A stretch of DNA of 35,721 nt, taken from a virus (lineage: Duplodnaviria > Heunggongvirae > Uroviricota > Caudoviricetes). The stretch is taken from IMG/VR virus record IMGVR_UViG_2874956758_000001; one strand, written 5' to 3'. Positions 7,656 through 34,359 of the stretch are shown here, in pieces (the stretch's first letter is position 1; the number at the start of each line of letters is the position of its first letter). A program made the position numbers and the translations under genes. The notes under the pieces were generated by a model, which made no database searches, had not been told where the DNA came from, and saw only the letters and a list, made by a program, of their open reading frames with translations.

Positions 7656-8690
7656 TCAGCCGTTGTCAGTGTCCAGTGAGTAGTTTTTAAAGCGGATGAC
7701 CTCCTGACCGAGCCAGCCGTTTATTTCCCGAATCCTGTCCTGTAACGGGATAAGCTCATTGCGGACAAAGACCTTTGCCACTTTCTCAATATCACCCAGC
7801 GACCCGACGTTCTCCGGCTTGCCGCCCATCAACTGAAAGGGGATGCGGTGCGCGTCCAGCAGGTCAGCGGCGCTGGCTTTTTTGATATTAAAAAAATCGT
7901 CCTTCGTTGCCACTTCACTGAGTGGGATAATTTTAATGCCGTCGGCTTTCCCCTGTGGGGCATAGAGAAACAGGTTTTTAAAGTTGTTGCGGCCTTTCGA
8001 CTTCACCATGTTTTCGCGGAGCATTTCGATATCGTTGCGATCCTGCACGGCATCGGTGACGTACATGATGTATCCGGCATGTGCGCCGTTTTCGTAATAC
8101 TTGCGGCGGAACAGCGTGGCTGATTCATTCAGCCAGGCAGAGTTAAGGGCGCTGAGATATTCCGGCAGGCCGTACAGCTCCTGATTGATATCCGGCTCCA
8201 GCAGGTGAAACACGGAGCCGGGCGTGAAAGGTGTTGGCTCGTTGAAGGACGGCACCCACCAGTAAATATCTTCTTCCACACCACGGCGGGTATATTTTGC
8301 CGGTGAGGTTTCCAGTCTGATGACCTTACCGGTGGTGCTGTAACGCTTTTCCAGAAACGCATTACCGAACACCAGAAAATCCAGCACAAAGCGGCTGAAA
8401 TCCTGCTGGGAAAGCCACGGATGCGGGATAAATGTCGAGGCCAGAATATTACGTTTGACGTAAATCGGGGAGCTGTGATGCACGGCAGCACGCAGGCTTT
8501 TTGCCAGACCGGTAAAGCTGACCGGTGGCTCATACCATCTGCCGTTACTGATGCACTCGACGTAATCCAGAATGTCACGGCGATCGAGTACCGGCACCGG
8601 CTCACCAAAGGTGAATGCCTCCATTTTCGGGGCGCTGGCGGTCATTGTTTTTGCCGCTGGTCGCGGTGTTTTCCCTTTTTTCTTGCTCAT
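7656..8690 (-). CDS. Q: Portal protein
   Basis: 344 aa, the size and position of P2 gpQ next to cos and upstream of P. Confidence 0.88.
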   Translation of the reverse strand: MSKKKGKTPRPAAKTMTASAPKMEAFTFGEPVPVLDRRDILDYVECISNGRWYEPPVSFTGLAKSLRAAVHHSSPIYVKRNILASTFIPHPWLSQQDFSRFVLDFLVFGNAFLEKRYSTTGKVIRLETSPAKYTRRGVEEDIYWWVPSFNEPTPFTPGSVFHLLEPDINQELYGLPEYLSALNSAWLNESATLFRRKYYENGAHAGYIMYVTDAVQDRNDIEMLRENMVKSKGRNNFKNLFLYAPQGKADGIKIIPLSEVATKDDFFNIKKASAADLLDAHRIPFQLMGGKPENVGSLGDIEKVAKVFVRNELIPLQDRIREINGWLGQEVIRFKNYSLDTDNG

Positions 8691-9208
8691 CAGTAAAACT
8701 CCAGAATGGTGGATGTCAGCGGAGTGCTGATACCGGCGGTGAGTGGCTCATTTAACAGGGCGTGCATGGTCGCCCAGGCGAGGTCGGCGTGGCTGGCTTC
8801 CTCGCTGCGGCTGGCCTCATAGGTGGCGCTGCGTCCGCTGCTGGTCATGGTCTTGCGGATAGCCATAAACGAGCTGGTGATGTCGGTGGCGCTGACGTCA
8901 TATTCCAGACAGCCACGGCGGATAACGTCTTTTGCCTTGAGCACCATTGCGGTTTTCATTTCCGGCGTGTAGCGGATATCGCGAGCGGCGGGATAGAACG
9001 AGCGCACGAGCTGGAACACACCGACACCGAGGCCGGTGGCATCAATCCCGATGTATTCGACGTTGTATTTTTCGGTGAGTTTGCGGATGGATTCTGCCTG
9101 GGTGGCAAAGTCCATGCCTTTCCACTGGTGACGCTCAAGTATTCTGAATTTGCCACCGGCCACCACCGGCGGTGCCAGCACCACGCATCCGGCGCATAGT
9201 CTTCCCAT
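8690..9208 (-). CDS. P: Terminase large subunit gpP, C-terminal (nuclease domain) portion, in a different frame from the N-terminal portion
   Basis: This frame reads GKFRILERHQWKGMDFATQAESIRKLTEKYNVEYIGIDATGLGVG; it overlaps the N-terminal ORF, whose translation degenerates into low-complexity sequence in the overlap. Confidence 0.7.
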   Translation of the reverse strand: MGRLCAGCVVLAPPVVAGGKFRILERHQWKGMDFATQAESIRKLTEKYNVEYIGIDATGLGVGVFQLVRSFYPAARDIRYTPEMKTAMVLKAKDVIRRGCLEYDVSATDITSSFMAIRKTMTSSGRSATYEASRSEEASHADLAWATMHALLNEPLTAGISTPLTSTILEFY

Positions 9209-10389
9209 TCTTCCAGCGTGTCGACCATGCAGCGTTGCAGCTCCTCGAACGGGAACACCGATGCCTTGTCGTCAACAAATTCACACATGAACAGGTTTTT
9301 AAAATCGTCGGCGCTGTTTTCGCGTTTGAGCTGCTCAATGTCGAACAGCGTGCAGCCGCCTTTCAGGGCGTCCTCAATGGTGACAATCTGCCGCCACTGG
9401 CCGTCTGCACAGAGAAGACCTCCGGCAAGGGCGTTATGACTGACGTCGATTTCCACGCGTTCGGCGGCGCTGGCGCGTCCCCGGTTGAACAGTTCACCCG
9501 ACCAGAACGGGTAGGCGTCGTGCGCCAGCGTGGACGGGGTGGAGAAATAGGTCGAGCGCAGGTGACTCTGTGAGGCCATACCTGATGCCACCTTACGCAG
9601 TACCTGAAAATTCGGGATCCAGAAAATCTCATCGACGTAAAGGTCGCCGTTATGGCTCTGTGCGGTGTTGGAGTTGGTGCCGAGAAAAATCAGTTTTGCG
9701 CCGTTATTGCCCAGGACAATCGGGTCACCGGTCAGGTCAACGTCAACCAGCCGGGCAAAGGCGATGATGTATTCACGGAACACATACGCCTGCGTTTTAC
9801 TGGCCGACAGAAAAATCTGGTTATGACCTGTTTTCAGGGCGCGCAGCAGCGCCTCGCGGGAAAAATAAAACGTTGCGCCAATCTGGCGGGATTTCAGGAT
9901 ATCGCGGATGCGGTGCTCAAGCCCGGCGCGATACCAGTGCAACTGATAGTCGAAAGACTGCTCAAAGAAAATCTGCTCCAGCTTTTCGATGGCCTCGTCA
10001 CTGAAAAAATTCTTTTTCGGTTTGCGCCGCCCGCCTTTGTTGCGGTTAGCGACGTTCGGATTAAGGTCTGCCTCGTTGCCGGTCTGACTGTAACGGTTTA
10101 CCCGTGCCAGTCGTTCAATCTGGCGTCCCAGCAGGTCAATTTCCTTGAAGTCACCGCCGGTTTTCTGCGGTTTGATGATGAGCTGGGTCAGTCGTGCTTC
10201 CAGACTCATTTCGACACGGCTGATGGGGGCAACGCTGTCCCAGCCGTCGCGCTGTTTCCAGCTCTGCACCGTCGGGCGTTTCATCTGCAACATGGCGGCA
10301 ATCTGCGGCACGGAAAACCCCTGCCAGTACAGCAGCGCCGCCTGACGACGCGGGTCGTGTAAAAGAGTGGTGTCTGTGGTGATGGTCAT
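8956..10389 (-). CDS. P: Terminase large subunit gpP (ATPase), N-terminal portion; frame lost near 9165-9195
   Basis: Probable start MTITTD at 10389 with GAGGT ribosome-binding site. Protein-like up to WEDYAPDA, then WCWHRRWW and Pro/Ser-rich nonsense. Combined span 8690-10389 is about 566 codons, against roughly 590 aa recalled for P2 gpP. Confidence 0.75.
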   Translation of the reverse strand: MTITTDTTLLHDPRRQAALLYWQGFSVPQIAAMLQMKRPTVQSWKQRDGWDSVAPISRVEMSLEARLTQLIIKPQKTGGDFKEIDLLGRQIERLARVNRYSQTGNEADLNPNVANRNKGGRRKPKKNFFSDEAIEKLEQIFFEQSFDYQLHWYRAGLEHRIRDILKSRQIGATFYFSREALLRALKTGHNQIFLSASKTQAYVFREYIIAFARLVDVDLTGDPIVLGNNGAKLIFLGTNSNTAQSHNGDLYVDEIFWIPNFQVLRKVASGMASQSHLRSTYFSTPSTLAHDAYPFWSGELFNRGRASAAERVEIDVSHNALAGGLLCADGQWRQIVTIEDALKGGCTLFDIEQLKRENSADDFKNLFMCEFVDDKASVFPFEELQRCMVDTLEEWEDYAPDAWCWHRRWWPVANSEYLSVTSGKAWTLPPRQNPSANSPKNTTSNTSGLMPPASVSVCSSSCARSIPPLAISATRRK

Positions 10390-15888: not shown

Positions 15889-16318
15889 TGCCGTCACGGT
15901 GCTGAAAACTAACCCCGATATGCTGCGGATATTCGTGGATAACGGGAGTATTGCCTCCACACTGGCGGCGTCGCTGTCATTCGAAAAGCGTTACACGCTC
16001 AATGTGATTGTGACCGACTTTACCGGTAATTTTGACCTGCTCATCGTGCCGGTGCTGGTGTGGCTGCGGGAAAATCAGCCCGACATCATGACCACCGACG
16101 AAGGTCAGAAAAAAGGTTTCACGTTTTATGCAGACATCAACAATGACAGCAGCTTTGATATCAGCATCAGCCTGATGCTGACCGAGCGAACGCTGGTCAG
16201 TGAGGTTGACGGTGCGCTGCATGTGAAGAATATCCCGGAACCTCCGACGCCGGAGCCAGTCAATCGCCCGATGGAGCTTTATATCAATGGTGAACTGGTG
16301 AGCAAGTGGGATGAATGA
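15851..16318 (+). CDS. R: Tail completion protein R
   Basis: 155 aa, the size and position of P2 gpR. Confidence 0.8.
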   Translation: MLKPDSLRRALTDAVTVLKTNPDMLRIFVDNGSIASTLAASLSFEKRYTLNVIVTDFTGNFDLLIVPVLVWLRENQPDIMTTDEGQKKGFTFYADINNDSSFDISISLMLTERTLVSEVDGALHVKNIPEPPTPEPVNRPMELYINGELVSKWDE

Positions 16319-16517
16319 GTTTAAGCGTTTTGAAGACCGGCTGACCGGACTGATTGAATCGCTGTCACCGTCTGGGCGTCGGCGACTGAGTGCAGAACTG
16401 GCGAAACGTCTGCGGCAGAGTCAGCAGCGTCGGGTGATGGCACAGAAAGCCCCGGACGGCACACCCTACGCACCACGCCAGCAGCAGAGCGCCAGAAAAA
16501 AAGACCGGTCGCGTTAA
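16311..16517 (+). CDS. S: Tail completion protein S, N-terminal portion; frame breaks at an A7 run near 16494-16500
   Basis: 68-aa ORF ending ...SARKKDRSR; removing one A from the run would read ARKKTGRVKRKMFAKLITS and join the next ORF. Combined span 16311-16764 is about 150 codons, the size of P2 gpS. Confidence 0.7.
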   Translation: MNEFKRFEDRLTGLIESLSPSGRRRLSAELAKRLRQSQQRRVMAQKAPDGTPYAPRQQQSARKKDRSR

Positions 16518-16524
16518 GCGAAAA

Positions 16525-16764
16525 ATGTTTGCGAAACTTATCACCAGTCGTTTTTTGCATATCCGCGCCAGCCCTGAACAGGCATCAATGGAGTTTTACG
16601 GCGGGAAGTCACCGAAAATCGCCAGTGTGCATCAGTTCGGTCTGTCGGAAGAAACCCGGAAAGACGGTAAGAAAAATGATTATCCGGCGCGTCCTCTGCT
16701 CGGCTTTACCGGTGAGGATGTGCAGATAATTGAAGAGATTATCCTGGCTCACCTCGACCGTTAG
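16525..16764 (+). CDS. S: Tail completion protein S, C-terminal portion
   Basis: 79-aa ORF in the frame that the upstream S fragment would enter after a 1-nt change in the A-run. Confidence 0.7.
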   Translation: MFAKLITSRFLHIRASPEQASMEFYGGKSPKIASVHQFGLSEETRKDGKKNDYPARPLLGFTGEDVQIIEEIILAHLDR

Positions 16765-16830
16765 TTGTGCCATTCCCGACACATCATCGTTACATTGCCG
16801 CCGGTATGACCCGGCGGCATCCTTCCCGTT

Positions 16831-17466
16831 ATGAACACTCTCGCAAATATCCAGGAACTCGCGCGCGCACTGCGCAACATGATTCGTACCGGCCTTGTCG
16901 TCGAAACCAACCTTAAAGCCGGTCGCTGCCGTGTGCAGACCGGCGGCATGTGCACCGACTGGCTTCAGTGGCTGACCTGTCGTGCCGGGCGTTCGCGCAC
17001 ATGGTGGGCACCTTCCGTGGGGGAGCAGGTGCTGATTCTGGCCGTGGGCGGTGAACTTGACACGGCGTTTGTTCTGCCGGGGATTTATTCCGGCGATAAC
17101 CCTGCGCCGTCTGCGTCGGCGGATGCCCTGCATATCCGTTTCCCTGACGGGGCGGTGATTGAGTATGAACCTGAAACCAGCGCACTCACGGTAAGCGGAA
17201 TTAAAACAGCCAGCGTGACGGCTTCTGATTCTGTTACTGCCACGGTGCCGGTGGTCATGGTGAAAGCATCAACCCGCGTCACCCTGGACACACCGGAGGT
17301 GGTCTGCACCAACAGGCTGATTACCGGTACGCTGGAAGTGCAGAAGGGCGGGACGATGCGCGGCAACATTGAACATACCGGCGGTGAACTCTCATCAAAC
17401 GGTAAGGTACTGCATACCCATAAACACCCCGGCGACAGCGGCGGCACAACCGGGAGTCCTTTATGA
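16831..17466 (+). CDS. V: Baseplate spike protein
   Basis: 211 aa, the size and position of P2 gpV. Confidence 0.85.
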   Translation: MNTLANIQELARALRNMIRTGLVVETNLKAGRCRVQTGGMCTDWLQWLTCRAGRSRTWWAPSVGEQVLILAVGGELDTAFVLPGIYSGDNPAPSASADALHIRFPDGAVIEYEPETSALTVSGIKTASVTASDSVTATVPVVMVKASTRVTLDTPEVVCTNRLITGTLEVQKGGTMRGNIEHTGGELSSNGKVLHTHKHPGDSGGTTGSPL

Positions 17467-19256: not shown

Positions 19257-21446
19257 ATGAGCACAAAATTCAAAACCGTTATCACCACTGCCGGTGCAGC
19301 AAAGCTGGCAGCGGCAACCGCACCGGGAGGGCGGAAGGTCAACATTACCACGATGGCCGTCGGGGATGGCGGTGGTAAATTGCCTGTCCCGGATGCCGGA
19401 CAGACCGGGCTTATCCACGAAGTCTGGCGACATACGCTGAACAAAATCAGCCAGGACAAACGAAACAGTAATTATATTATCGCAGAGCTGGTTATTCCGC
19501 CGGAGGTGGGCGGTTTCTGGATGCGTGAGCTTGGCCTGTACGATGATGCGGGAACATTAATTGCCGTGGCGAACATGGCCGAAAGTTATAAGCCAGCTCT
19601 TGCCGAAGGCTCAGGGCGTTCGCAGACCTGTCGCATGGTCATCATCGTCAGCAGTGTGGCCTCAGTGGCGCTGACCATTGACACCACAACGGTGATGGCG
19701 ACGCAGGATTACGTTGATGACAAAATTGCAGAGCATGAACAGTCACGACGTCACCCGGACGCCTCGCTGACCGCAAAAGGTTTTACTCAGTTAAGCAGTG
19801 CGACCAACAGCACGTCTGAAACACTGGCCGCAACGCCGAAAGCGGTAAAGGCCGCCTATGACCTGGCTAACGGGAAATATACCGCACAGGACGCCACCAC
19901 AGCGCGAAAAGGTCTTGTCCAGCTCAGTAGCGTCACCAACAGTGATTCTGAAACGCTGGCTGCAACGCCAAAGGCGGTAAAGGCTGCGTATGACCTTGCT
20001 AACGGGAAATACACTGCACAGGATGCCACCACGGCGCGAAAAGGGCTTGTCCAGCTCAGTAGCGCCACCAACAGTGATTCTGAAACGCTGGCCGCAACAC
20101 CAAAAGCGGTGAAGTCTGCCTATGACAATGCTGAAAAACGTCTTCAGAAAGATCAGAATGGTGCGGATATTCCGGGAAAGGATACCTTCACGAAAAATAT
20201 CGGTGCCTGTCGTGCTTATAGCGGCGCTTTGAGCACTGAAGCCGGAAACTGGACAACCGCTCAGTTTATTGAATGGCTGGATTCCCGTGGTGCATTTAAT
20301 CATCCGTACTGGATGTGCAAAGGCTCCTGGTCATATGCAAATAACAAAATCATTACGGATACCGGATGTGGTGATATCCACCTGGCTGGTTGTGTCGTCG
20401 AGGTCATGGGAACTAAATCTGCAATCACTATCCGAGTGACCACGCCGACAACATCAAGCGGTGGCGGTACAACCAGCGCGCAATTCACTTACATTAATCA
20501 TGGGGACGGCTACTCCCCCGGCTGGCGTCGTGACTGGAATCGTCAGGGCGACTCAATGACCGGAACGATTAATCAGGATGGCGGAAGCCAGAATGCCTAT
20601 ATGTCTACGGCCTTATGTTCAGGCACCAGAGGCGGCAAAAAATATCTCAGAAAGTTTCGTGGTGGAGAAGGAGACACTATCTGGCATGAAACAGTACAGG
20701 GCGGGGTAGTTCGCTGGGCGACTGGTAATACTGATGCTCAGGAAGAATTATCACTCAGCTCCGCTTATGGTCTCCGTTCAAGAGGTGAGATTACATCAAG
20801 CAGTGCTAATGGTCTGCGCATTGCTTATGGCAATTATGGATTCTTTATCAGGAATGATGGCAGCAGCACTTATTTTATGTTGACTAAATCAGGTGACAGA
20901 TTAGGTACTTATAATAATTTAAGACCACTGATTATAAATGATGCCACGGGTGCTGTATCAATGGGGCATGGCCTGAGTGTTACTGGTGATATTGTCTCAA
21001 GTACCAAAGTACGTGCCGGTAGCGGGAAAAAGTTCACGGTCAGCAGCAGCAATACATCCACGAAGGAAGCTGCATTCAATTTGTGGGGAAACTCAAGTCG
21101 TCCGGTGGTGGCTGAATTAGGTGATGATGCAGGCTGGCATTTTTACAGTCAGAGAAATACAGATAACAGCATCACTTTTGCTGTTAACGGGCAGGTATCA
21201 CCATCTAACTATAGTAATTTTGATTCACGCTATGTCCGGGATATCCGGCTTGGTGGTGCTGCCACATACAAACCTGCGAACAATGGCATGACATGGACAC
21301 ATAAGGCACCGTCCGGGTGTGTATATTCCGGCATTATTGTTCAGGATACCGGCTCAAACTCTGCCGATAACATTGGTGGCGTATATTACAGACCGGTGCA
21401 GAAATACATTAACGGGACTTGGTATAACGGTAAGCGTACAGCCTGA
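19257..21446 (+). CDS. H: Tail fibre protein H, with internal tandem repeats and a C-terminus altered by IS66 insertion
   Basis: 729 aa; the N-terminal region is typical of P2-type fibres; the last codons (GKRTA, stop) lie inside the IS66 left inverted repeat. Confidence 0.85.
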   Translation: MSTKFKTVITTAGAAKLAAATAPGGRKVNITTMAVGDGGGKLPVPDAGQTGLIHEVWRHTLNKISQDKRNSNYIIAELVIPPEVGGFWMRELGLYDDAGTLIAVANMAESYKPALAEGSGRSQTCRMVIIVSSVASVALTIDTTTVMATQDYVDDKIAEHEQSRRHPDASLTAKGFTQLSSATNSTSETLAATPKAVKAAYDLANGKYTAQDATTARKGLVQLSSVTNSDSETLAATPKAVKAAYDLANGKYTAQDATTARKGLVQLSSATNSDSETLAATPKAVKSAYDNAEKRLQKDQNGADIPGKDTFTKNIGACRAYSGALSTEAGNWTTAQFIEWLDSRGAFNHPYWMCKGSWSYANNKIITDTGCGDIHLAGCVVEVMGTKSAITIRVTTPTTSSGGGTTSAQFTYINHGDGYSPGWRRDWNRQGDSMTGTINQDGGSQNAYMSTALCSGTRGGKKYLRKFRGGEGDTIWHETVQGGVVRWATGNTDAQEELSLSSAYGLRSRGEITSSSANGLRIAYGNYGFFIRNDGSSTYFMLTKSGDRLGTYNNLRPLIINDATGAVSMGHGLSVTGDIVSSTKVRAGSGKKFTVSSSNTSTKEAAFNLWGNSSRPVVAELGDDAGWHFYSQRNTDNSITFAVNGQVSPSNYSNFDSRYVRDIRLGGAATYKPANNGMTWTHKAPSGCVYSGIIVQDTGSNSADNIGGVYYRPVQKYINGTWYNGKRTA
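19775..20135 (+). repeat. About three tandem copies of a ~120-bp (40 aa) unit inside H (motif SETLAATPKAVKAAYDLANGKYTAQDATTARKGLVQLSS)
   Basis: Near-identical protein and DNA repeats seen directly; this is a common phage tail-fibre repeat motif. Confidence 0.8.
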
Positions 21447-21499
21447 ACCGTCTGGTCAGAATCTGACGAATTAGACAAAGTGGTGTCCACCAATAAGTA

Positions 21500-21901
21500 G
21501 TGGGAACCAAAGTGTCAGATATGCAGAAAAATGTGACTCCCGGCAGGCGAAAAGGCTGCCCTAATTATCCTCCCGAATTTAAACAGCAGCTCGTTGCTGC
21601 CTCCTGTGAACCCGGGATATCCATCTCAAAACTTGCTCTTGAAAATGGCATTAACGCCAATCTGTTGTTCAAATGGCGACAACAATGGCGCGAGGGAAAG
21701 CTGCTATTACCTTCTTCAGAGAGCCCCCAGCTACTTCCTGTGACTCTCGATGCAGCTGCCGAACAGCCAGAATCGCTCGCAGAGGACCCGGAAACCCTCA
21801 GTATCAGCTGTGAGGTAACGTTCCGGCACGGGACGCTCCGCTTCAATGGCAATGTCAGCGAAAAGCTCCTGACTCTGCTGATACAGGAACTGAAGCGATG
21901 A
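21500..21901 (+). CDS. tnpA: IS66-family accessory protein TnpA (HTH)
   Basis: 133-aa first ORF of the element; exact start uncertain. Confidence 0.7.
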   Translation: MGTKVSDMQKNVTPGRRKGCPNYPPEFKQQLVAASCEPGISISKLALENGINANLLFKWRQQWREGKLLLPSSESPQLLPVTLDAAAEQPESLAEDPETLSISCEVTFRHGTLRFNGNVSEKLLTLLIQELKR

Positions 21902-22245
21902 TCCCGTTACCTTCCGGGACCAAAATTTGGCTGGTTGCCGGTATCACCGATATGAGAAATGGCTTCAACGGTCTGGCTGCGAAAGTACAGACGGCGCTGA
22001 AAGACGATCCCATGTCCGGCCATGTTTTCATTTTCCGGGGCCGCAGCGGCAGTCAGGTTAAACTGCTGTGGTCCACCGGTGACGGACTGTGCCTCCTGAC
22101 CAAACGGCTGGAGCGTGGGCGCTTCGCCTGGCCGTCAGCCCGTGATGGCAAAGTGTTCCTTACGCAGGCGCAGCTGGCGATGCTGCTGGAAGGTATCGAC
22201 TGGCGACAGCCTAAGCGGCTGCTGACCTCCCTGACCATGCTGTAA
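21898..22245 (+). CDS. tnpB: IS66-family Orf2 / TnpB
   Basis: 115 aa; start overlaps the tnpA stop; conserved IS66 Orf2-like sequence ([11 protein letters not shown]...[24 protein letters not shown]). Confidence 0.8.
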
Positions 22246-22294
22246 ATCTCTTTATCCTGGTTGTCACAGAATAAGCCCGGTAAAATACGGGCTT

Positions 22295-23827
22295 ATGAAC
22301 GACATCTCTTCTGACGACATCTTCCTGCTGAAACAGCGCCTGGCCGAACAGGAGATCCACGCCCTGCAGGAAAAGCTGAGCAACCGGGAGCGCGAAATAG
22401 ACCATCTGCAGGCGCAGCTGGATAAACTCCGCCGGATGAACTTCGGCAGTCGTTCCGAAAAAGTCTCCCGCCGTATCGCACAAATGGAAGCCGATCTGAA
22501 CCGGCTTCAGAAAGAGAGCGATACGCTGACTGGTAGGGTGTATGACCCGGCAGTACAGCGTCCGTTGCGTCAGACCCGCACCCGTAAGCCGTTCCCTGAA
22601 TCACTACCCCGTGACGAAAAGCGACTGTTGCCTGCGGCGCCGTGCTGCCCGAACTGCGGCGGTTCACTGAGCTATCTGGGCGAGGATACCGCCGAACAGC
22701 TGGAGTTGATGCGTAGTGCCTTCCGGGTTATCCGGACGGTACGGGAAAAACATGCCTGTACTCAGTGCGATGCCATCGTGCAGGCACCTGCACCTTCGCG
22801 GCCCATCGAGCGGGGTATCGCCGGACCGGGGCTGCTGGCCCGCGTGCTGACCTCGAAGTATGCAGAGCACACCCCGCTGTATCGCCAGTCAGAAATATAC
22901 GGCCGGCAAGGTGTGAAGCTGAGCCGTTCACTGCTGTCGGGCTGGGTGGATGCATGCTGCCGGCTGCTGTCTCCGCTGGAAGAGGCGCTTCATGGCTATG
23001 TCATGACTGACGGCAAACTCCATGCTGATGATACCCCGGTCCAGGTACTGATGCCGGGTAATAAGAAGACGAAGACCGGGCGGTTGTGGGCGTATGTTCG
23101 TGATGACCGCAATGCCGGGTCAGCGTTGGCACCTGCAGTGTGGTTCGCTTACAGCCCGGACAGAAAAGGCATCCATCCGCAGACTCATCTTGCTTGCTTC
23201 AGCGGTGTGCTGCAAGCGGATGCGTACGCCGGGTTCAACGAGCTGTACCGCAATGGTGGGATAACGGAAGCTGCCTGCTGGGCTCATGCCCGCCGAAAGA
23301 TCCACGATGTGCACGTCCGCATCCCGTCAGCACTGACGGAAGAAGCCCTGGAGCAGCTCGGTCAGTTGTACGCCATAGAGGCGGATATAAGGGGAATGCC
23401 GGCAGAGCAGCGGCTTGCTGAACGTCAGCGAAAAACGAAACCGCTGTTGAAATCCCTGGAAAGCTGGTTGCGTGAAAAGATGAAGACCCTGTCGCGACAC
23501 TCAGAGTTGGCGAAGGCGTTCGCGTACGCACTTAACCAGTGGCCGGCACTGACGTACTATGCGAACGATGGCTGGGTGGAAATCGACAACAACATCGCTG
23601 AAAATGCCCTGCGGGCGGTCAGTCTGGGTCGTAAAAACTTCCTGTTCTTCGGCTCTGACCATGGTGGTGAGCGGGGAGCGCTACTGTACAGCCTGATCGG
23701 GACGTGCAAACTGAATGACGTGGATCCAGAAAGCTACCTTCGCCATGTGCTTGGCGTCATAGCAGACTGGCCGGTCAACCGGGTCAGCGAACTGCTTCCG
23801 TGGCGCATAGCACTGCCAGCTGAATAA
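22295..23827 (+). CDS. tnpC: IS66-family transposase TnpC
   Basis: 510 aa; N-terminal coiled coil, Cys cluster (CPNCG...CTQC), DDE-type core; ends just inside the right inverted repeat. Confidence 0.85.
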
Positions 23828-23889
23828 CACATCCCCGTCAATACGGCCCTCGCTGTACGCTTACGTATAACGTGGCGCAGGTATAATTT

Positions 23890-24417: not shown

Positions 24418-24509
24418 GTTGTATGAGCTTACATATCTATTGCGTAGAGTAAAGCATAATCTGACAGTCCGCTCTGTGCCAGAAGCGGACATAGCAGGTG
24501 GATTTGCCC

Positions 24510-25415
24510 CTATATTTCCAGACATCTGTTATCACTTAACCCATTACAAGCCCGCTGCCGCAGATATTCCCGTGGCGAGCGATAACCCAGCGCACTATGC
24601 GGATGCCATTCGTTATAATGCTCGAACGCCTCTGCAAGGTTCTTTGCTGCCGTTAACCCGTCTGGTTTGGGCATGATACTGATGTAGTCACGCTTTATCG
24701 TTTTCACGAAGCTCTCTGCTATTCCGTTACTCTCCGGACTCCGCACCGCCGTGTTCTTCGGTTCAAGTCCCAACATCCGGGCGAACTGGCGTGTTTCATT
24801 AGCCCGGTAGCATGAACCATTATCCGTCAGCCACTCCACTGGAGACGACGGAAGATCGTTGCCGAAGCGGCGTTCCACCGCTCCCAGCATGACGTCCTGT
24901 ACTGTTTCACTGTTGAAGCCGCCGGTAGTCACCGCCCAGTGCAGTGCCTCACGATCACAGCAGTCCAGCGCGAACGTGACACGCAGTCTCTCTCCGTTAT
25001 CACAGCAGAACTCGAACCCGTCAGAGCACCATCGCTGATTGCTTTCTTTCACGGCCACTCTGCCTGTATGTGCCCGTTTCGATGGCGGTACAGCAGGTTT
25101 TCGCTCAAGCAACAGCGCATTCTGGCGCATGATCCGGTAAACACGTTTGGCATTGATCGCAGGCATACCATCAAGTTCTGCCTGTCTGCGAAGCAGCGCC
25201 CATACCCGACGATAACCATACGTGGGCAGCTCTCCGATAACATGGTGTATACGGAGAAGCACATCCGTATCATCAGTGTGACGACTGCGGCGGCCATCCA
25301 TCCAGTCATCGGTTCGTCTGAGAATGACGTGCAACTGCGCACGCGACACCCGGAGACAACGGCTGACTAAGCTTACTCCCCATCCCCGGGCAATAAGGGC
25401 GCGTGCGCTATCCAC
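24510..25415 (-). CDS. insD: IS2 transposase OrfB (DDE integrase-like); expressed as an InsCD fusion by -1 frameshift
   Basis: 301 aa, recognised as IS2 InsD. Confidence 0.9.
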
Positions 25416-25738
25416 TTTTTTGCCCGTCCATATTCAACGGCTTCTTTGAGGAGTTCATTTTCCATCGTTTTCTTGCCGAGCAGGCGCTGGAGTTCTTTAA
25501 TCTGCTTCATGGCGGCAGCAAGTTGAGAGGCAGGAACAACCTGTTCTCCGGCGGCCACAGCAGTAAGACTTCCTTCCTGGTATTGCTTACGCCAGAGAAA
25601 TAACTGGCTGGCTGCTACACCATGTTGCCGGGCAACGAGGGAGACCGTCATCCCCGGTTCAAAGCTCTGCTGAACAATTGCGATCTTTTCCTGTGTGGTA
25701 CGCCGTCTGCGTTTCTCCGGCCCTAAGACATCAATCAT
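25373..25738 (-). CDS. insC: IS2 OrfA (HTH regulator)
   Basis: 121 aa from [13 protein letters not shown]; overlaps the insD start. Confidence 0.9.
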
Positions 25739-25901
25739 CTGTTCTCCAATGACTAGTCTAAAAACTAGTATTAAGACTATCACTTATTTAAGTGATACTG
25801 GTTGTCTGGAGATTCAGGGGGCCAGTCTAGCAGGTGCCAGATGCATTTGTTATTCTTCATTGAATTGAGCAGTATCCTTAACAGGAACTCTGAATACATA
25901 A

Positions 25902-26540
25902 ATGAAGATGAAAAACATGTCTGAAGTGTTGACCCAAGAAAAGCTTATTTTTGTTGCCCAGAGACTAAAGGCCCTCGCGCAGTCAGGCCTGACCTATTCA
26001 AAAGACGTCTTTGACAAGGAACGCTATGAAGCCTTGCGTGAAATTGCCGCTGGACTGCTGAGTTCGCAGTTTGATATTAGCCGCAATGATTTGTTTCATG
26101 TATCGGAAACGGGTTACGCGACGCCCAAAACAGATGTGCGTGCGTTTATCCTGCGTAATAATCGTATTCTGATGGTGAAAGAGGCTGCAGATGGATTATG
26201 GAGTCTTCCTGGCGGATGGGCAGATGTTGGAGATACACCTTCTGAAGCTGTGCGTCGAGAGGTCGAAGAAGAAACCGGATTAAAAGTCAGAGTGACTAAA
26301 CTATTGGGAGTTTGGGATCGTAATCTTCACGGCCATCCGCCTTTACCCTGGCATGTTTACAAGCTGATTTTTCTCTGTGAAGAAGTAGGTGGCAGCCTGT
26401 CAATCAGCCATGAGTCACTCGATGCTGATTTTTTTGATGTCAACGACCTGCCTGAATTGTCGCTTTCAAGAATTGTGCCTGAGCAGATTGCTGTCAGCCT
26501 GAGAGTAGCGAAAGGTGATGAAAAAACATGGTTTGATTAA
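25902..26540 (+). CDS. NUDIX hydrolase with an N-terminal helical extension
   Basis: NUDIX box GGWADVGDTPSEAVRREVEEETG (Gx5Ex7REUxEExGU pattern) in the C-terminal half of a 212-aa protein; first gene of a two-gene cassette in the G-FI variable locus. Confidence 0.8.
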   Translation: MKMKNMSEVLTQEKLIFVAQRLKALAQSGLTYSKDVFDKERYEALREIAAGLLSSQFDISRNDLFHVSETGYATPKTDVRAFILRNNRILMVKEAADGLWSLPGGWADVGDTPSEAVRREVEEETGLKVRVTKLLGVWDRNLHGHPPLPWHVYKLIFLCEEVGGSLSISHESLDADFFDVNDLPELSLSRIVPEQIAVSLRVAKGDEKTWFD

Positions 26541-26563
26541 CTTTCTTCTGCAACCATTAAGGA

Positions 26564-27208
26564 ATGGCAATGATATTCAACGCTAAGGGTTTTTTATTCG
26601 ATATGGACGGTACGCTGGTTGATTCAACAGCCGTAGTGGAAAGCGTCTGGAGAGATTTTTGTGCAGAATACGGTCTTGATTCTCAGGCTGTGATTGCTTA
26701 CGCACACGGGCGGCAAACGATTGATACACTAACGCATTTTATTGGTGCAGGTGAGAAAACCAATAAAATCGCGGCCTCACTCGAAGAGGTTGAAATCAAC
26801 ACGACAGAAGGCGTTACTGAAGTAAAAGGGGCCGCTGCACTCTTATCAAAACTGCCACCGGATAGCTGGGCACTTGTCACTTCTGCAGGCAGAATGCTTG
26901 CCGAAAACAGGATGAAAGCGGCTAATCTCCCCTTACCCATAGTAATGGTGTGTGCAGAAGATGTAATGACGGGAAAACCAAGTCCCGAGGGTTACATCAA
27001 AGCAGCTTTGGCTTTGGGCCTTGAGCCTGGTGAATGCGTGGTATTTGAGGATGCATCTGCGGGTATAAAAGCAGGGCTGGCAAGTGGAGCTTCGGTAATA
27101 GCTGTTCAGCCTGACGCTCTGGGATCATCTGAAGCCCATGCCGTCAGCGAACTGTCTGACATTATGGTCAAGATTTCCGGAGAACGTTTCAATATCATCT
27201 GTGGTTAA
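26564..27208 (+). CDS. HAD-superfamily hydrolase (subfamily IA phosphatase / beta-phosphoglucomutase-like)
   Basis: HAD motif I FDMDGTLVDS, motif II LVTSAG, motif IV FEDASAGIKAG; 23 bp downstream of the NUDIX gene. True start may be the second ATG at 26570. Confidence 0.8.
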   Translation: MAMIFNAKGFLFDMDGTLVDSTAVVESVWRDFCAEYGLDSQAVIAYAHGRQTIDTLTHFIGAGEKTNKIAASLEEVEINTTEGVTEVKGAAALLSKLPPDSWALVTSAGRMLAENRMKAANLPLPIVMVCAEDVMTGKPSPEGYIKAALALGLEPGECVVFEDASAGIKAGLASGASVIAVQPDALGSSEAHAVSELSDIMVKISGERFNIICG

Positions 27209-28687: not shown

Positions 28688-29206
28688 ATGGCAATGCCGC
28701 GCAAACTCAAGTTAATGAACGTCTTTCTGAACGGCTACAGCTATCAGGGCGTTGCAAAGTCCGTCACGCTGCCAAAACTGACCCGTAAACTCGAAAACTA
28801 TCGCGGTGCGGGGATGAACGGAAGCGCACCGGTAGACCTCGGCCTTGATGACGATGCGCTGTCAATGGAGTGGTCGCTCGGGGGCTTCCCGGATTCGGTT
28901 ATCTGGGAGCTTTACGCCGCAACCGGTGTGGATGCCGTGCCGATTCGTTTTGCTGGCTCTTACCAGCGTGACGATACCGGCGAAACGGTGGCCGTAGAGG
29001 TGGTCATGCGTGGCCGTCAGAAAGAAATCGACACCGGCGAGGGTAAACAGGGAGAAGACACCGAGTCGAAAATCTCCGTAGTCTGCACCTATTTCCGGCT
29101 GACGATGGACGGTAAGGAGCTGGTCGAAATCGACACCATCAACATGATTGAGAAGGTGAACGGCGTCGACCGGCTGGAGCAACACCGCCGCAATATCGGC
29201 CTGTAA
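28688..29206 (+). CDS. FII: Tail tube protein
   Basis: 172 aa, the size and position of P2 gpFII. Confidence 0.9.
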   Translation: MAMPRKLKLMNVFLNGYSYQGVAKSVTLPKLTRKLENYRGAGMNGSAPVDLGLDDDALSMEWSLGGFPDSVIWELYAATGVDAVPIRFAGSYQRDDTGETVAVEVVMRGRQKEIDTGEGKQGEDTESKISVVCTYFRLTMDGKELVEIDTINMIEKVNGVDRLEQHRRNIGL

Positions 29207-29262
29207 TTTTCATCCGGTCAGCCTGCCTGACCGGTTAACACCGATTCAGAAGTGAGAAAACC

Positions 29263-29538
29263 ATGAACAAAGAAAATGTGATTACCCTGGACAATCCGGT
29301 CAAGCGTGGTGAGCAGGTTATCGAACAGGTCACGCTGATGAAACCCAGTGCGGGGACGCTGCGCGGTGTCAGTCTGGCTGCGGTCGCAAACTCAGAAGTC
29401 GATGCACTGATTAAGGTGCTGCCGCGCATGACGGCACCGATGCTGACCGAGCAGGAAGTCGCCGCGCTGGAACTGCCTGACCTTGTGGCGCTGGCCGGTA
29501 AGGTGGTCGGTTTTTTGTCGCCGAACTCGGTGCAGTAA
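29263..29538 (+). CDS. E: Tail assembly chaperone E
   Basis: 91 aa; ends just after a TTTTTTG slippery heptamer. Confidence 0.8.
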   Translation: MNKENVITLDNPVKRGEQVIEQVTLMKPSAGTLRGVSLAAVANSEVDALIKVLPRMTAPMLTEQEVAALELPDLVALAGKVVGFLSPNSVQ

Positions 29539-29688
29539 CGTTCCCGAAAAATCTGTCGGTCGATGACCTGATGGCGGATGTGGCAGTGATATTTCACTGG
29601 CCGCCATCAGAACTGTATCCCATGAGCCTGACCGAACTCATCACATGGCGCGAAAAGGCGCTCCGGCGAAGCGGAAACACGAATGAGT
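29263..29688 (+). CDS. E+E': E+E' tail assembly chaperone made by programmed -1 frameshift at the TTTTTTG site (about 29509-29515)
   Basis: The -1 frame after the heptamer is open (FVAELGAVTFPKNLSVDDLMADVAVIFHWPPSELYPMSLTELITWREKALRRSGNTNE) to a stop at 29686-29688, overlapping the T start; analogous to lambda G/GT. Confidence 0.7.
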
Positions 29689-32130
29689 AACAATGTAAAA
29701 TTACAGGTATTGCTCAGGGCTGTTGACCAGGCATCCCGCCCGTTTAAATCCATCCGCACAGCGAGTAAGTCGCTGTCGGGGGATATCCGGGAAACACAAA
29801 AATCACTGCGCGAGCTGAACGGTCACGCATCCCGTATTGAGGGATTCCGCAAGACCAGTGCACAGCTCGCCGTGACTGGTCATGCACTTGAAAAGGCACG
29901 GCAGGAGGCCGAAGCCCTTGCCACACAGTTTAAAAACACCGAACGTCCGACCCGTGCTCAGGCGAAAGTGCTGGAATCAGCAAAGCGAGCGGCGGAGGAC
30001 TTACAGGCGAAATATAACCGCCTGACGGATTCCGTTAAACGCCAGCAGCGGGAACTGGCCGCTGTGGGAATTAATACCCGCAATCTTGCACATGATGAGC
30101 AGGGACTGAAAAACCGTATCAGTGAAACCACCGCACAGCTTAACCGACAACGTGACGCGCTGGCGCGTGTCAGTGCGCAACAGGCAAAACTTAACGCAGT
30201 AAAACAGCGTTATCAGGCAGGCAAGGAACTGGCCGGAAATATGGCCTCAGTGGGCGCTGCCGGTGTGGGGATTGCTGCTGCGGGAACAATGGCCGGAGTT
30301 AAGCTACTGATGCCCGGTTATGAGTTTGCGCAGAAAAACTCAGAATTGCAGGCCGTGCTCGGAGTGGCAAAAGACTCTGCTGAAATGGCTGCACTACGCA
30401 AGCAGGCGCGCCAGCTCGGCGACAACACCGCCGCCTCGGCGGACGATGCAGCCGGTGCGCAGATTATCATTGCGAAAGCGGGTGGAGATGCTGCGGCTAT
30501 TCAGGCGGCAACGCCGGTCACGCTGAATATGGCACTGGCGAATCAGCGGTCGATGGAAGAAAACGCGCAACTGTTGCTGGGGACTAAGGCATCCTTTCAA
30601 CTGTCAAATGATGATGTCAGCCATGTGGGCGACGTGTTGTCAGCAACGATGAATAAGTCGGCGGCTGATTTTCAGGGACTCAGTGATGCACTGACTTACC
30701 TCGGTCCGGTTGCGAGGACGGCAGGTGTAAGTCTTGAGCAGGCAGCGGCCATGACAGGTGTGCTGCATGACAATAACATCAGGGGGTCAATGGCGGGTAC
30801 GGGTAGTAGTGCCGTTGTCACCCGATTACAGGCTCCGACAGGGAAAGCATGGGAAGCACTAAAAGAGCTTGGCGTTAAAACCTCGGACAAAAAGGGAAAT
30901 ATGCGTCCGTTGTTCACCATTCTGAAAGAGATTCAGGTCAGCTTTGATAAACACAAGCTGGGAACGTCTCAGAAGGGGGAATACCTTAAAACCATTTTTG
31001 GTGAGGAAGCCCTGAAATCAGCGAACGTTTTACTGGCAGCGGCTGCAAGCGGAAAACTGGATAAGCTGACCGCCACGCTGAAAGCCTCGGACGGTAAAAC
31101 GGAAGAGCTGGTTAAAATCATGCAGGACAACCTCGGCGGTGACTTTAAGGAGTTTCAGTCCGCTTATGAGGCGGTGGGGACTGACCTGTTTGACCAGCAG
31201 GAAGGCGCACTGCGTAATCTCACGCAGACGGCCACAAAGTATGTGTTAAAACTCGACGGCTGGATCCAGAAAAACAAATCACTGGCGTCAACCATCGGCA
31301 TCATTGTCGGTGGTGCACTGGCGCTGACTGGTGTCATCGGTGCCATTGGCCTCGTAGCCTGGCCGGTTATCACCGGCATCAATGCCATTATCGCGGCAGC
31401 AGGCGCAATGGGGGCAATCTTCACGACGGTTGGCAGTGCTGTTATGACGGCCATCGGGGCGATTAGCTGGCCGGTTGTGGCCGTGGTGGCTGCAATTGTC
31501 GCCGGGGCGTTGCTTATCCGTAAATACTGGGAGCCTGTCAGCGCATTCTTTGGCGGTGTGGTGGAAGGGCTGAAAGCGGCATTTGCGCCCGTGGGGGAAC
31601 TGTTCGCGCCACTTAAGCCGGTGTTTGACTGGCTGGGTGAAAAGTTACAGGCCGCGTGGCAGTGGTTTAAAAACCTGATTGCCCCCGTCAAAGCCACCCA
31701 GGACACCCTGAACCGTTGCCGTGATACGGGCGTCATGTTCGGGCAGGCACTGGCTGACGCGCTGATGCTGCCGCTTAATGCGTTCAACAAACTGCGCAGC
31801 GGCATTGACTGGGTACTGGAAAAACTCGGTGTTATCAACAAAGAGTCAGACACACTTGACCAGACCGCCGCCAGAACTCATGCCGCCACGTATGGCACCG
31901 GTGGTTATATTCCGGCGACCAGCTCTTATGCAGGCTATCAGGCTTATCAGCCGGTCACGGTACCGGCTGGTCGCTCTTATGTGGACCAGAGTAAAAACGA
32001 ATATCACATCAGCCTGACGGGTGGTACTGCGCCGGGGACACAGCTTGACCGCCAGTTACAGGATGCGCTTGAAAAATACGAGCGGGATAAACGTGCGCGC
32101 GCCCGTGCCAGCATGATGCATGACGGTTAA
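29683..32130 (+). CDS. T: Tail tape measure protein
   Basis: 815 aa, coiled-coil rich with Gly/Ala-rich hydrophobic segments; size of P2 gpT. Confidence 0.9.
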   Translation: MSNNVKLQVLLRAVDQASRPFKSIRTASKSLSGDIRETQKSLRELNGHASRIEGFRKTSAQLAVTGHALEKARQEAEALATQFKNTERPTRAQAKVLESAKRAAEDLQAKYNRLTDSVKRQQRELAAVGINTRNLAHDEQGLKNRISETTAQLNRQRDALARVSAQQAKLNAVKQRYQAGKELAGNMASVGAAGVGIAAAGTMAGVKLLMPGYEFAQKNSELQAVLGVAKDSAEMAALRKQARQLGDNTAASADDAAGAQIIIAKAGGDAAAIQAATPVTLNMALANQRSMEENAQLLLGTKASFQLSNDDVSHVGDVLSATMNKSAADFQGLSDALTYLGPVARTAGVSLEQAAAMTGVLHDNNIRGSMAGTGSSAVVTRLQAPTGKAWEALKELGVKTSDKKGNMRPLFTILKEIQVSFDKHKLGTSQKGEYLKTIFGEEALKSANVLLAAAASGKLDKLTATLKASDGKTEELVKIMQDNLGGDFKEFQSAYEAVGTDLFDQQEGALRNLTQTATKYVLKLDGWIQKNKSLASTIGIIVGGALALTGVIGAIGLVAWPVITGINAIIAAAGAMGAIFTTVGSAVMTAIGAISWPVVAVVAAIVAGALLIRKYWEPVSAFFGGVVEGLKAAFAPVGELFAPLKPVFDWLGEKLQAAWQWFKNLIAPVKATQDTLNRCRDTGVMFGQALADALMLPLNAFNKLRSGIDWVLEKLGVINKESDTLDQTAARTHAATYGTGGYIPATSSYAGYQAYQPVTVPAGRSYVDQSKNEYHISLTGGTAPGTQLDRQLQDALEKYERDKRARARASMMHDG

Positions 32131-34187: not shown

Positions 34188-34214
34188 TAAAAAATAAGCC
34201 CGTGTAAGGGAGAT
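34188..34214. other. attR: Prophage right attachment core (P2-type 27-bp att core AAAAAATAAGCCCGTGTAAGGGAGATT)
   Basis: String matches my recollection of the P2 att core; lies between ogr and the first host gene, where attR is expected. Confidence 0.65.
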
Positions 34215-34359
34215 TACACAGGCTAAGGAGGTGGTTCCTGGTACAGCTAGCATTTTATGGGTTATGTTTTTCAGCGAAATGGATGATAACCTTAATAAAT
34301 GCAGCTGTATGTGATCGGTTTCTAAGAATTTTCCATCCGGGAAAAATAATCGAAATTAA

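Follow-up and report, generated by a model that had tools for sequence, protein, structure and literature searches.

Between the tail tube and tape-measure genes of the P2-like prophage contained in the analysed stretch of DNA (35,721 nucleotides, hereafter the window), two short reading frames overlap in a -1 relation, which raises the question whether they are joined by programmed ribosomal frameshifting, expressed as separate genes or derived from a continuous gene by mutation or sequencing error. An earlier note on this DNA had described the site as a conserved E/E' frameshift signal that is probably functional and useful as a control, a real frameshift not to be mistaken for an error. The locus is almost certainly the programmed -1 ribosomal frameshift site of the E/E' tail-assembly-chaperone pair of a P2-like (Peduovirus) prophage. 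This reading is carried by the anatomy of the locus, its identity to phage P2, the conservation of the signal throughout the family and the coding constraint on the -1 frame. The feature as such is already known (Christie 2002; Xu 2004) and ordinary, with nothing new for frameshift biology, and its value is limited to that of an annotation control, being a recoding signal that gene callers routinely split in two.

Reading the sequence directly places the slippery heptamer TTTTTTG at 29511-29517, with base 29511 at the third codon position of gene E (start at 29263). The 0-frame reads GG[T TTT TTG] (Gly-Phe-Leu) at this place and presents the heptamer in the X_XXY_YYZ phase, which is needed for tandem tRNA -1 slippage. 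The stop codon of E (29536-29538; C-terminus ...GFLSPNSVQ*) follows seven codons downstream of the heptamer. From the re-read G at 29517, the -1 frame extends over 57 codons, translated as VAELGAVTFPKNLSVDDLMADVAVIFHWPPSELYPMSLTELITWREKALRRSGNTNE, before its first stop, TAA at 29688-29690, is reached inside gene T, with which E' overlaps by 8 nt (ATG of T at 29683). The earlier description of a TTTTTTG heptamer near the end of E and a -1 frame open up to the T start is accurate; a stop codon shortly after the heptamer, named there as the observation that would speak against frameshifting, does not occur throughout these 57 codons, and the coordinates given at that time (29505-29688) are essentially right, the precise ones being 29511-29517 for the heptamer and 29517-29690 for E'. 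Both frames are open only in a zone of 37 nt (29502-29538). The gene order is FII - E/E' - T, placing the pair between the tail tube gene and the tape-measure gene, with the following features:

28688-29206, + strand: FII, tail tube protein; 172-aa ORF, Pfam PF04985 Phage_tube (E=2.3e-60)
29263-29538, + strand: gene E, tail assembly chaperone, 0-frame product; 91-aa ORF, Pfam PF10109, identical to UniProt TAP_BPP2
29499-29507, + strand: SD-like TAAGGTGGT, possible modulator; anti-SD duplex of -8.4 kcal/mol, conserved AAG/GTG wobble bases
29511-29517, + strand: slippery heptamer T_TTT_TTG, in E phase X_XXY_YYZ; same as the P2 site
29517-29690, + strand: E' extension in the -1 frame, 57 codons plus TAA, expected to be reached via frameshift from E only; Pfam PF06528
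29263-29690, + strand (29263-29517 joined to 29517-29690): composite E+E', 142 aa; identical to NP_046780.1 / O64312
29683-32130, + strand: gene T, tape-measure protein; 815-aa ORF, PF10145 PhageMin_Tail

In the Pfam comparison, Phage_TAC_7 (PF10109) was matched by residues 7-85 (E=1.4e-12, 47.8 bits at a cut-off of 25) and Phage_P2_GpE (PF06528) by residues 104-139 of the fusion (E=1.2e-21, 76.3 bits at a cut-off of 23). Both halves of the fusion were also assigned to 'tail protein' families of PHROGs, and a search by sequence for solved structures of E+E' found none. The bare heptamer is unremarkable, TTTTTTG in any phase being present in 18 copies on both strands of the window, with 8.7 copies expected. 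It stands out by its phase, its position and its conservation. Among the codons of the window's other late genes, 7 of 3755 (0.19%) carry a heptamer in the X_XXY_YYZ phase, and only about 0.02 such heptamers are expected in the 37-nt overlap zone.

Using positions 29200-29760 as megablast query, 74 phage records with at least 95% identity were retrieved, all of them Peduovirus/P2-like. At the homologous place, the P2 reference NC_001895 is annotated with E, with E+E' as a two-piece join and with a 'site of -1 translational frameshift', the note on E+E' reading '-1 frameshift; essential tail protein', and the genes T, U, D and ogr follow downstream. P2 and the window share the same heptamer, phase and position (85 codons into E), the same proteins and the FII-E/E'-T-U-D operon. 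In an exact-sequence look-up, the conceptual 142-aa product (...GFLVAELG...) is identical to P2 E+E' (NP_046780.1; UniProt O64312, TAPFS_BPP2, named 'Tail assembly protein E''), and the 91-aa product is identical to UniProt TAP_BPP2 ('Tail assembly protein E') and occurs on at least 1000 contigs. An alignment with P2 E and E+E', proposed in the earlier note as a check, gives 100% amino acid identity for both products, and the T proteins of the window and P2 are 91.8% identical over 815 aa. At the nucleotide level, pairwise alignment reveals no change over 116 nt before and 19 nt after the heptamer. The coding differences from P2 amount to nine, all synonymous, the six upstream of the heptamer being at third positions of the E frame and the three downstream at third positions of the -1 frame; one of the latter also changes the E stop from TGA in P2 to TAA in the window. 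Hence, the heptamer marks the point at which substitutions change their codon phase.

With this arrangement, translation by most ribosomes would end at 29538 in the E frame and yield the 91-aa chaperone E. A minority would slip while the P site holds tRNA-Phe on UUU (29512-14) and the A site holds tRNA-Leu on UUG (29515-17). The two tRNAs would re-pair one base back, on UUU UUU (29511-16), and decoding would restart at GUC (29517-19) and proceed in the -1 frame to the TAA at 29688-90. The predicted outcome is the 142-aa E+E' with the junction ...G-F-L-V-A-E..., which would be represented by the junction peptide ...VVGFLVAELGAVTFPK. The N-terminal chaperone domain would be common to both proteins and the GpE domain would be present in the long form only. 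By analogy with gpG/gpGT of phage lambda (PMC5009743), the shared domain would coat the tape-measure protein T and the E' extension would recruit tail tube subunits, with the slip frequency setting a fixed E:E+E' ratio. We infer the tandem-slippage details, the leucine at the junction and the chaperone roles, the last following the lambda model. As to the synthesis of both products, a passage in PMC3091744, citing Xu 2004 and Christie 2002, states that in P2 a single start yields both the 91-aa E and the 142-aa E+E', by way of TTTTTTG. For P2 itself, the two products are reportedly made at a fixed ratio and both required for assembly of the tail, according to work cited in PMC3091744 and PMC5009743.

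For evaluating conservation beyond P2, the fusion protein was compared by tblastn with 50,697 phage records, resulting in matches to 418 records, 401 of which show one place covering at least 80% of the query. Among the 60 matches listed, each one with at least 80% coverage consists of two pieces in two frames. The hosts include Escherichia, Klebsiella, Yersinia, Burkholderia, Ralstonia, Pseudomonas, Vibrio, Mannheimia, Aeromonas and Acidovorax. A set of 18 diverse genomes was compiled from 16 fetched loci, P2 and the window, with protein identities to the window of 35-100%. All of them (18/18) have E' in the -1 frame, together with an in-phase slippery heptamer within the overlap. The heptamer is T_TTT_TTG in 15 of these 18 Peduoviridae, and variants are found in Vibrio phage MAR (T_TTT_TTC), Escherichia phage 503458 (A_AAT_TTT) and Mannheimia phage PHL101 (G_GGA_AAG). 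A further 160 loci were collected from bacterial genomes and IMG/VR by a profile search with a 5-sequence alignment, and the -1 relation was established in 158 of them (TTTTTTG in 155, TTTTTTA in 3). Overall, E' is in the -1 frame in 176 of 178 loci. The two exceptions are both from Candidatus Symbiopectobacterium, a symbiont with a decaying genome. In one of them (L019, 1020-1060), an 11-nt deletion just before the T-run hard-fuses E to E', with loss of the short product, and in the other (L078, 1040-1140) the frame is broken within E'.

The pattern of nucleotide variation was derived from 137 distinct gap-free sequences of the P2 group anchored on the heptamer. Mean column entropies by codon phase are 0.97, 0.32 and 0.13 bits upstream of the heptamer, the wobble phase being that of the E frame, and 0.36, 0.24 and 0.78 bits downstream, with the wobble phase of the -1 frame, and the switch between them is located at the heptamer. 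The wobble columns of the heptamer codons GGT, TTT and TTG show entropies of 0, 0 and 0.11 bits, compared to a mean of 0.97 bits for the 60 upstream wobble columns, just one of which has a value of 0.11 bits or below. These near-invariant wobble bases therefore indicate selection at the nucleotide level beyond the need to encode Gly-Phe-Leu.

Automated pipelines annotate E' as a protein of its own, a 39-40-aa 'GpE family phage tail protein' next to a 'phage tail assembly protein', both in E. coli genomes and in several phage records. With the locus being present in 1583 of 5426 complete E. coli genomes, this mis-annotation is therefore very widespread. The corresponding alternative is that E' constitutes an independent 39-aa gene, translated by initiation at the ATG at 29571 or by re-initiation after the E stop without any frameshift. 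Besides its listing by RefSeq/PGAP and in the phage records, an ATG-started 39-aa ORF is indeed found at 29571-29690, and the Pfam GpE domain (fusion residues 104-139) lies wholly within it. However, already the stretch before this ATG (29538-29570) evolves as coding sequence in the -1 frame. From the E stop to ATG 29571, 297 synonymous to 204 non-synonymous codon differences were counted in the -1 frame, versus 35:474 and 13:485 in the other two frames. In the window, the -1 frame is without any ATG, GTG or TTG start codon from 29502 through 29570, thus including 29538-29570, and translation of such a start-less stretch, as suggested by these substitution patterns, is the signature of read-in from E. 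Moreover, SD pairing before ATG 29571 is poor at -2.4 kcal/mol, compared to values of -5 to -13.4 kcal/mol for FI, FII, E, U and D, the Met encoded by it is swapped for V, A, W or I in distant relatives, and a separate gene would leave the invariant in-phase heptamer unexplained. In addition, the 142-aa protein is reportedly made by P2 according to a passage in PMC3091744. Expression of E' exclusively as a gene of its own is very improbable; a minor independent 39-aa product alongside E+E' is a possible extra.

Slightly less probable still is that not the ribosome but RNA polymerase slips, stuttering on the T6 run and adding one U, so that some transcripts fuse E and E' with the junction G-F-F-V. 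A single-base insertion in the T run would yield the identical downstream frame, and transcriptional slippage is described in the pertinent part of PMC5009743 as a known alternative in some bacterial and IS genes. In addition, one deposited E. coli 142-aa protein (QTN08932.1) has the junction G-F-F-V-A-E, implying a genomic T7 run. Either the fusion is hard-wired in this genome or the assembly contains a homopolymer error. On the other hand, the run of six residues is short for efficient transcriptional slippage in bacteria, which uses runs of about nine or more. The heteropolymeric heptamers A_AAT_TTT of phage 503458 and G_GGA_AAG of phage PHL101 fit tandem tRNA slippage, not polymerase stuttering, and the run is always found in the X_XXY_YYZ phase with G or A as seventh base, neither of which is needed by a slipping polymerase. 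At the protein level, the peptide VVGFFVAELGAVTFPK would represent an alternative junction, originating from slippage one codon earlier or from transcriptional U insertion. Finally, a sequence or assembly error or a pseudogenising homopolymer mutation, with one continuous ORF or E alone as the true gene, can practically be dismissed, even though genuine frame breaks do occur elsewhere in the window, including the additional A in the A-run of gene S, as the P2 reference and 155 of 160 independent loci agree with the window in T6 length and in both flanking frames. The arrangement is shared, at 95% identity or more, by about 1,550 complete E. coli genomes, and exceptions are seen only in degraded symbiont genomes.

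Elements possibly stimulating the frameshift were searched for by folding 43, 83 and 161 nt around the site and by counting pairs of two candidate hairpins over the 137 sequences. Downstream RNA structure is unsupported in the window, with MFE z-scores of -1.0 (83 nt) and -0.7 (43 nt), and in the 18 genomes folding of 55-nt downstream segments did not exceed that of shuffled sequences (z between -1.05 and +1.9). Of the two hairpins, one with 5 bp starts 1 nt past the heptamer and is too near to act at the mRNA entrance, and the other, a 10-bp stem 50 nt downstream, shows almost no covariation and lies in the sequence encoding the conserved peptide DLMAD...WPPSE. A 3' stimulatory structure of the dnaX or IS3 type, that is, a hairpin or pseudoknot 5-9 nt downstream, was accordingly rejected. 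Scanning the window with Rfam gave no match to a frameshift-element family, the sole match being CyaR. The present folding results agree with a statement in PMC3091744, which in the part concerned describes P2 E+E' as being without downstream stimulatory structures. With no stimulator found, the efficiency reported for P2 would therefore be due to the heptamer and its context alone. As to the heptamer codons, the rules given in the relevant part of PMC4066793 are that UUN codons in the A site are shift-prone in E. coli reporters and that the 'heterogeneous' UUG is less so; these are general rules on UUN codons, and that part holds no reporter values for U_UUU_UUG.

Upstream, the SD-like TAAGGTGGT ends 3 nt 5' of the heptamer and matches the SD consensus at 8 of 9 positions, and the TAA contained in it is the -1-frame stop that opens the 37-nt overlap zone. 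Its anti-SD duplex of -8.4 kcal/mol is among the top 3% of 24-nt segments of the late region, and the wobble bases of its AAG and GTG codons are conserved in the 137 distinct P2-group sequences. However, compared with synonymous resampling the motif is not significant (P=0.08), and in distant relatives the upstream SD-like motif varies in spacing from 2 to 17 nt and in duplex energy from -1.5 to -10.6 kcal/mol. A role of TAAGGTGGT as cis element tuning the E:E+E' ratio via pairing with 16S rRNA is rather unlikely. If true, it would add a 5' modulator, not described before, to a P2 frameshift that otherwise counts as stimulator-free.

The tail-assembly-chaperone frameshift is said to be conserved in long-tailed dsDNA phages, as reportedly worked out by Levin in 1993 and by Xu, Hendrix and Duda in 2004, 2013 and 2014, and the programmed -1 frameshift of P2 E / E+E' was reportedly described by Christie et al. 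in 2002 (in J Bacteriol 184:6522). As in the lambda gpG/gpGT type, two overlapping ORFs are positioned between the genes for the major tail (tube) protein and the tape measure. A slippery heptamer lies in their overlap, and the second, -1-frame ORF has no start of its own. Also in line with the G/GT type, the second ORF of the pair in the window is without initiation signals of its own and shows coding selection from the slip site on. In contrast to lambda, the heptamer is T_TTT_TTG instead of G_GGA_AAG, the P2 tail is contractile and the frameshift efficiency reported for P2 and its relatives is two- to threefold above the low level of lambda (according to the relevant section of PMC5009743). 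For chaperone frameshifts in long-tailed phages, the same section states that the short and the long product share the N terminus and that neither is expected in the virion. Similarity also exists with the orfA/orfB pairs of IS3-family elements, in which likewise an X_XXY_YYZ tandem-slippage heptamer joins two overlapping ORFs by a -1 shift. However, the IS3 heptamer is A_AAA_AAG, the product belongs to a transposase family and frameshifting is typically aided by downstream structures and/or SD-like elements, none of which is supported at E/E'. An element of this family, IS2, is present in the window itself (24499-25829, - strand, 1331 bp, 5-bp duplication GCAGG). Its orfA and orfB overlap in -1 relation with an in-phase A_AAA_AAG at 25421-25415, which is a second programmed -1 frameshift signal in the window.

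The prophage surrounding the E/E' site reaches from int (partial) through ogr, with its right end adjoining trhP/yegQ. Most of the late genes are intact, with protein identities of about 92-100% to P2, the exceptions being lysA/lysB (94-96%) and the divergent tail-fibre genes H and G. In contrast to P2, however, this prophage is damaged by lesions in P and S and by IS insertions. The terminase large-subunit gene P (8690-10389, - strand) has suffered a frame-breaking deletion of 73 nt relative to P2, with the junction at about 9190-9195. The deletion is flanked by CGGCG microhomology and splits P into residues 1-402 and 424-590 in different frames, while the 73 nt are retained in all best matches among complete E. 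coli genomes. Unless the deletion is an assembly artefact, the prophage is probably packaging-defective. In the tail-completion gene S (16311-16761, + strand), an A-run at about 16496-16502 is one residue longer than in P2 (A7 here versus A6 in P2), which divides the gene between two frames; this is either a real pseudogenising mutation or a homopolymer sequencing error. The E/E' site should not be mistaken for a frame break of this kind, and with the P and S lesions in the same window, judging the integrity of the prophage requires distinguishing a programmed shift from damage. The suggestion in the earlier note to employ E/E' as a control against errors is well founded in this respect, a genuine recoding signal being found beside true frame breaks in P and S.

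With P broken and S frameshifted, infectious virions are therefore probably not made. The earlier expectation of a probably functional frameshift thus applies to the signal, which is intact, but not to the prophage. The phage is probably not viable, and the signal may have lost its biological importance in this host. Mass spectrometry of an induced lysate, also proposed in the earlier note, is awkward because of the P2-type immunity, the corresponding region being 99.6% identical to that of P2, and because P2 prophages are classically not SOS-inducible.

Several other features distinguish the window. Four codons short of its natural stop, the tail-fibre gene H is interrupted by an IS66-family element (21430-23864, + strand) with HTH_Tnp_1, TnpB_IS66 and DDE_Tnp_IS66 ORFs, 22-nt terminal inverted repeats and an 8-bp target duplication (GTATAACG). 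The insertion changes the end of H from ...VAQV* to ...GKRTA* and separates H from the fibre-assembly gene G. Genes for a NUDIX hydrolase and a HAD-family hydrolase (25902-27208, + strand) are located between G and FI, the slot occupied in P2 by the non-essential fun(Z) gene, and are probably cargo ('moron') genes. P2 orf30 is absent (window 16766-16831). At the right end of the prophage, P2 homology ends at 34215, beside trhP/yegQ, and this end overlaps with the CyaR/RyeE sRNA gene (34192-34277, - strand; Rfam RF00112, 100.7 bits). The phage attachment site is located in the 3' end of the CyaR gene.
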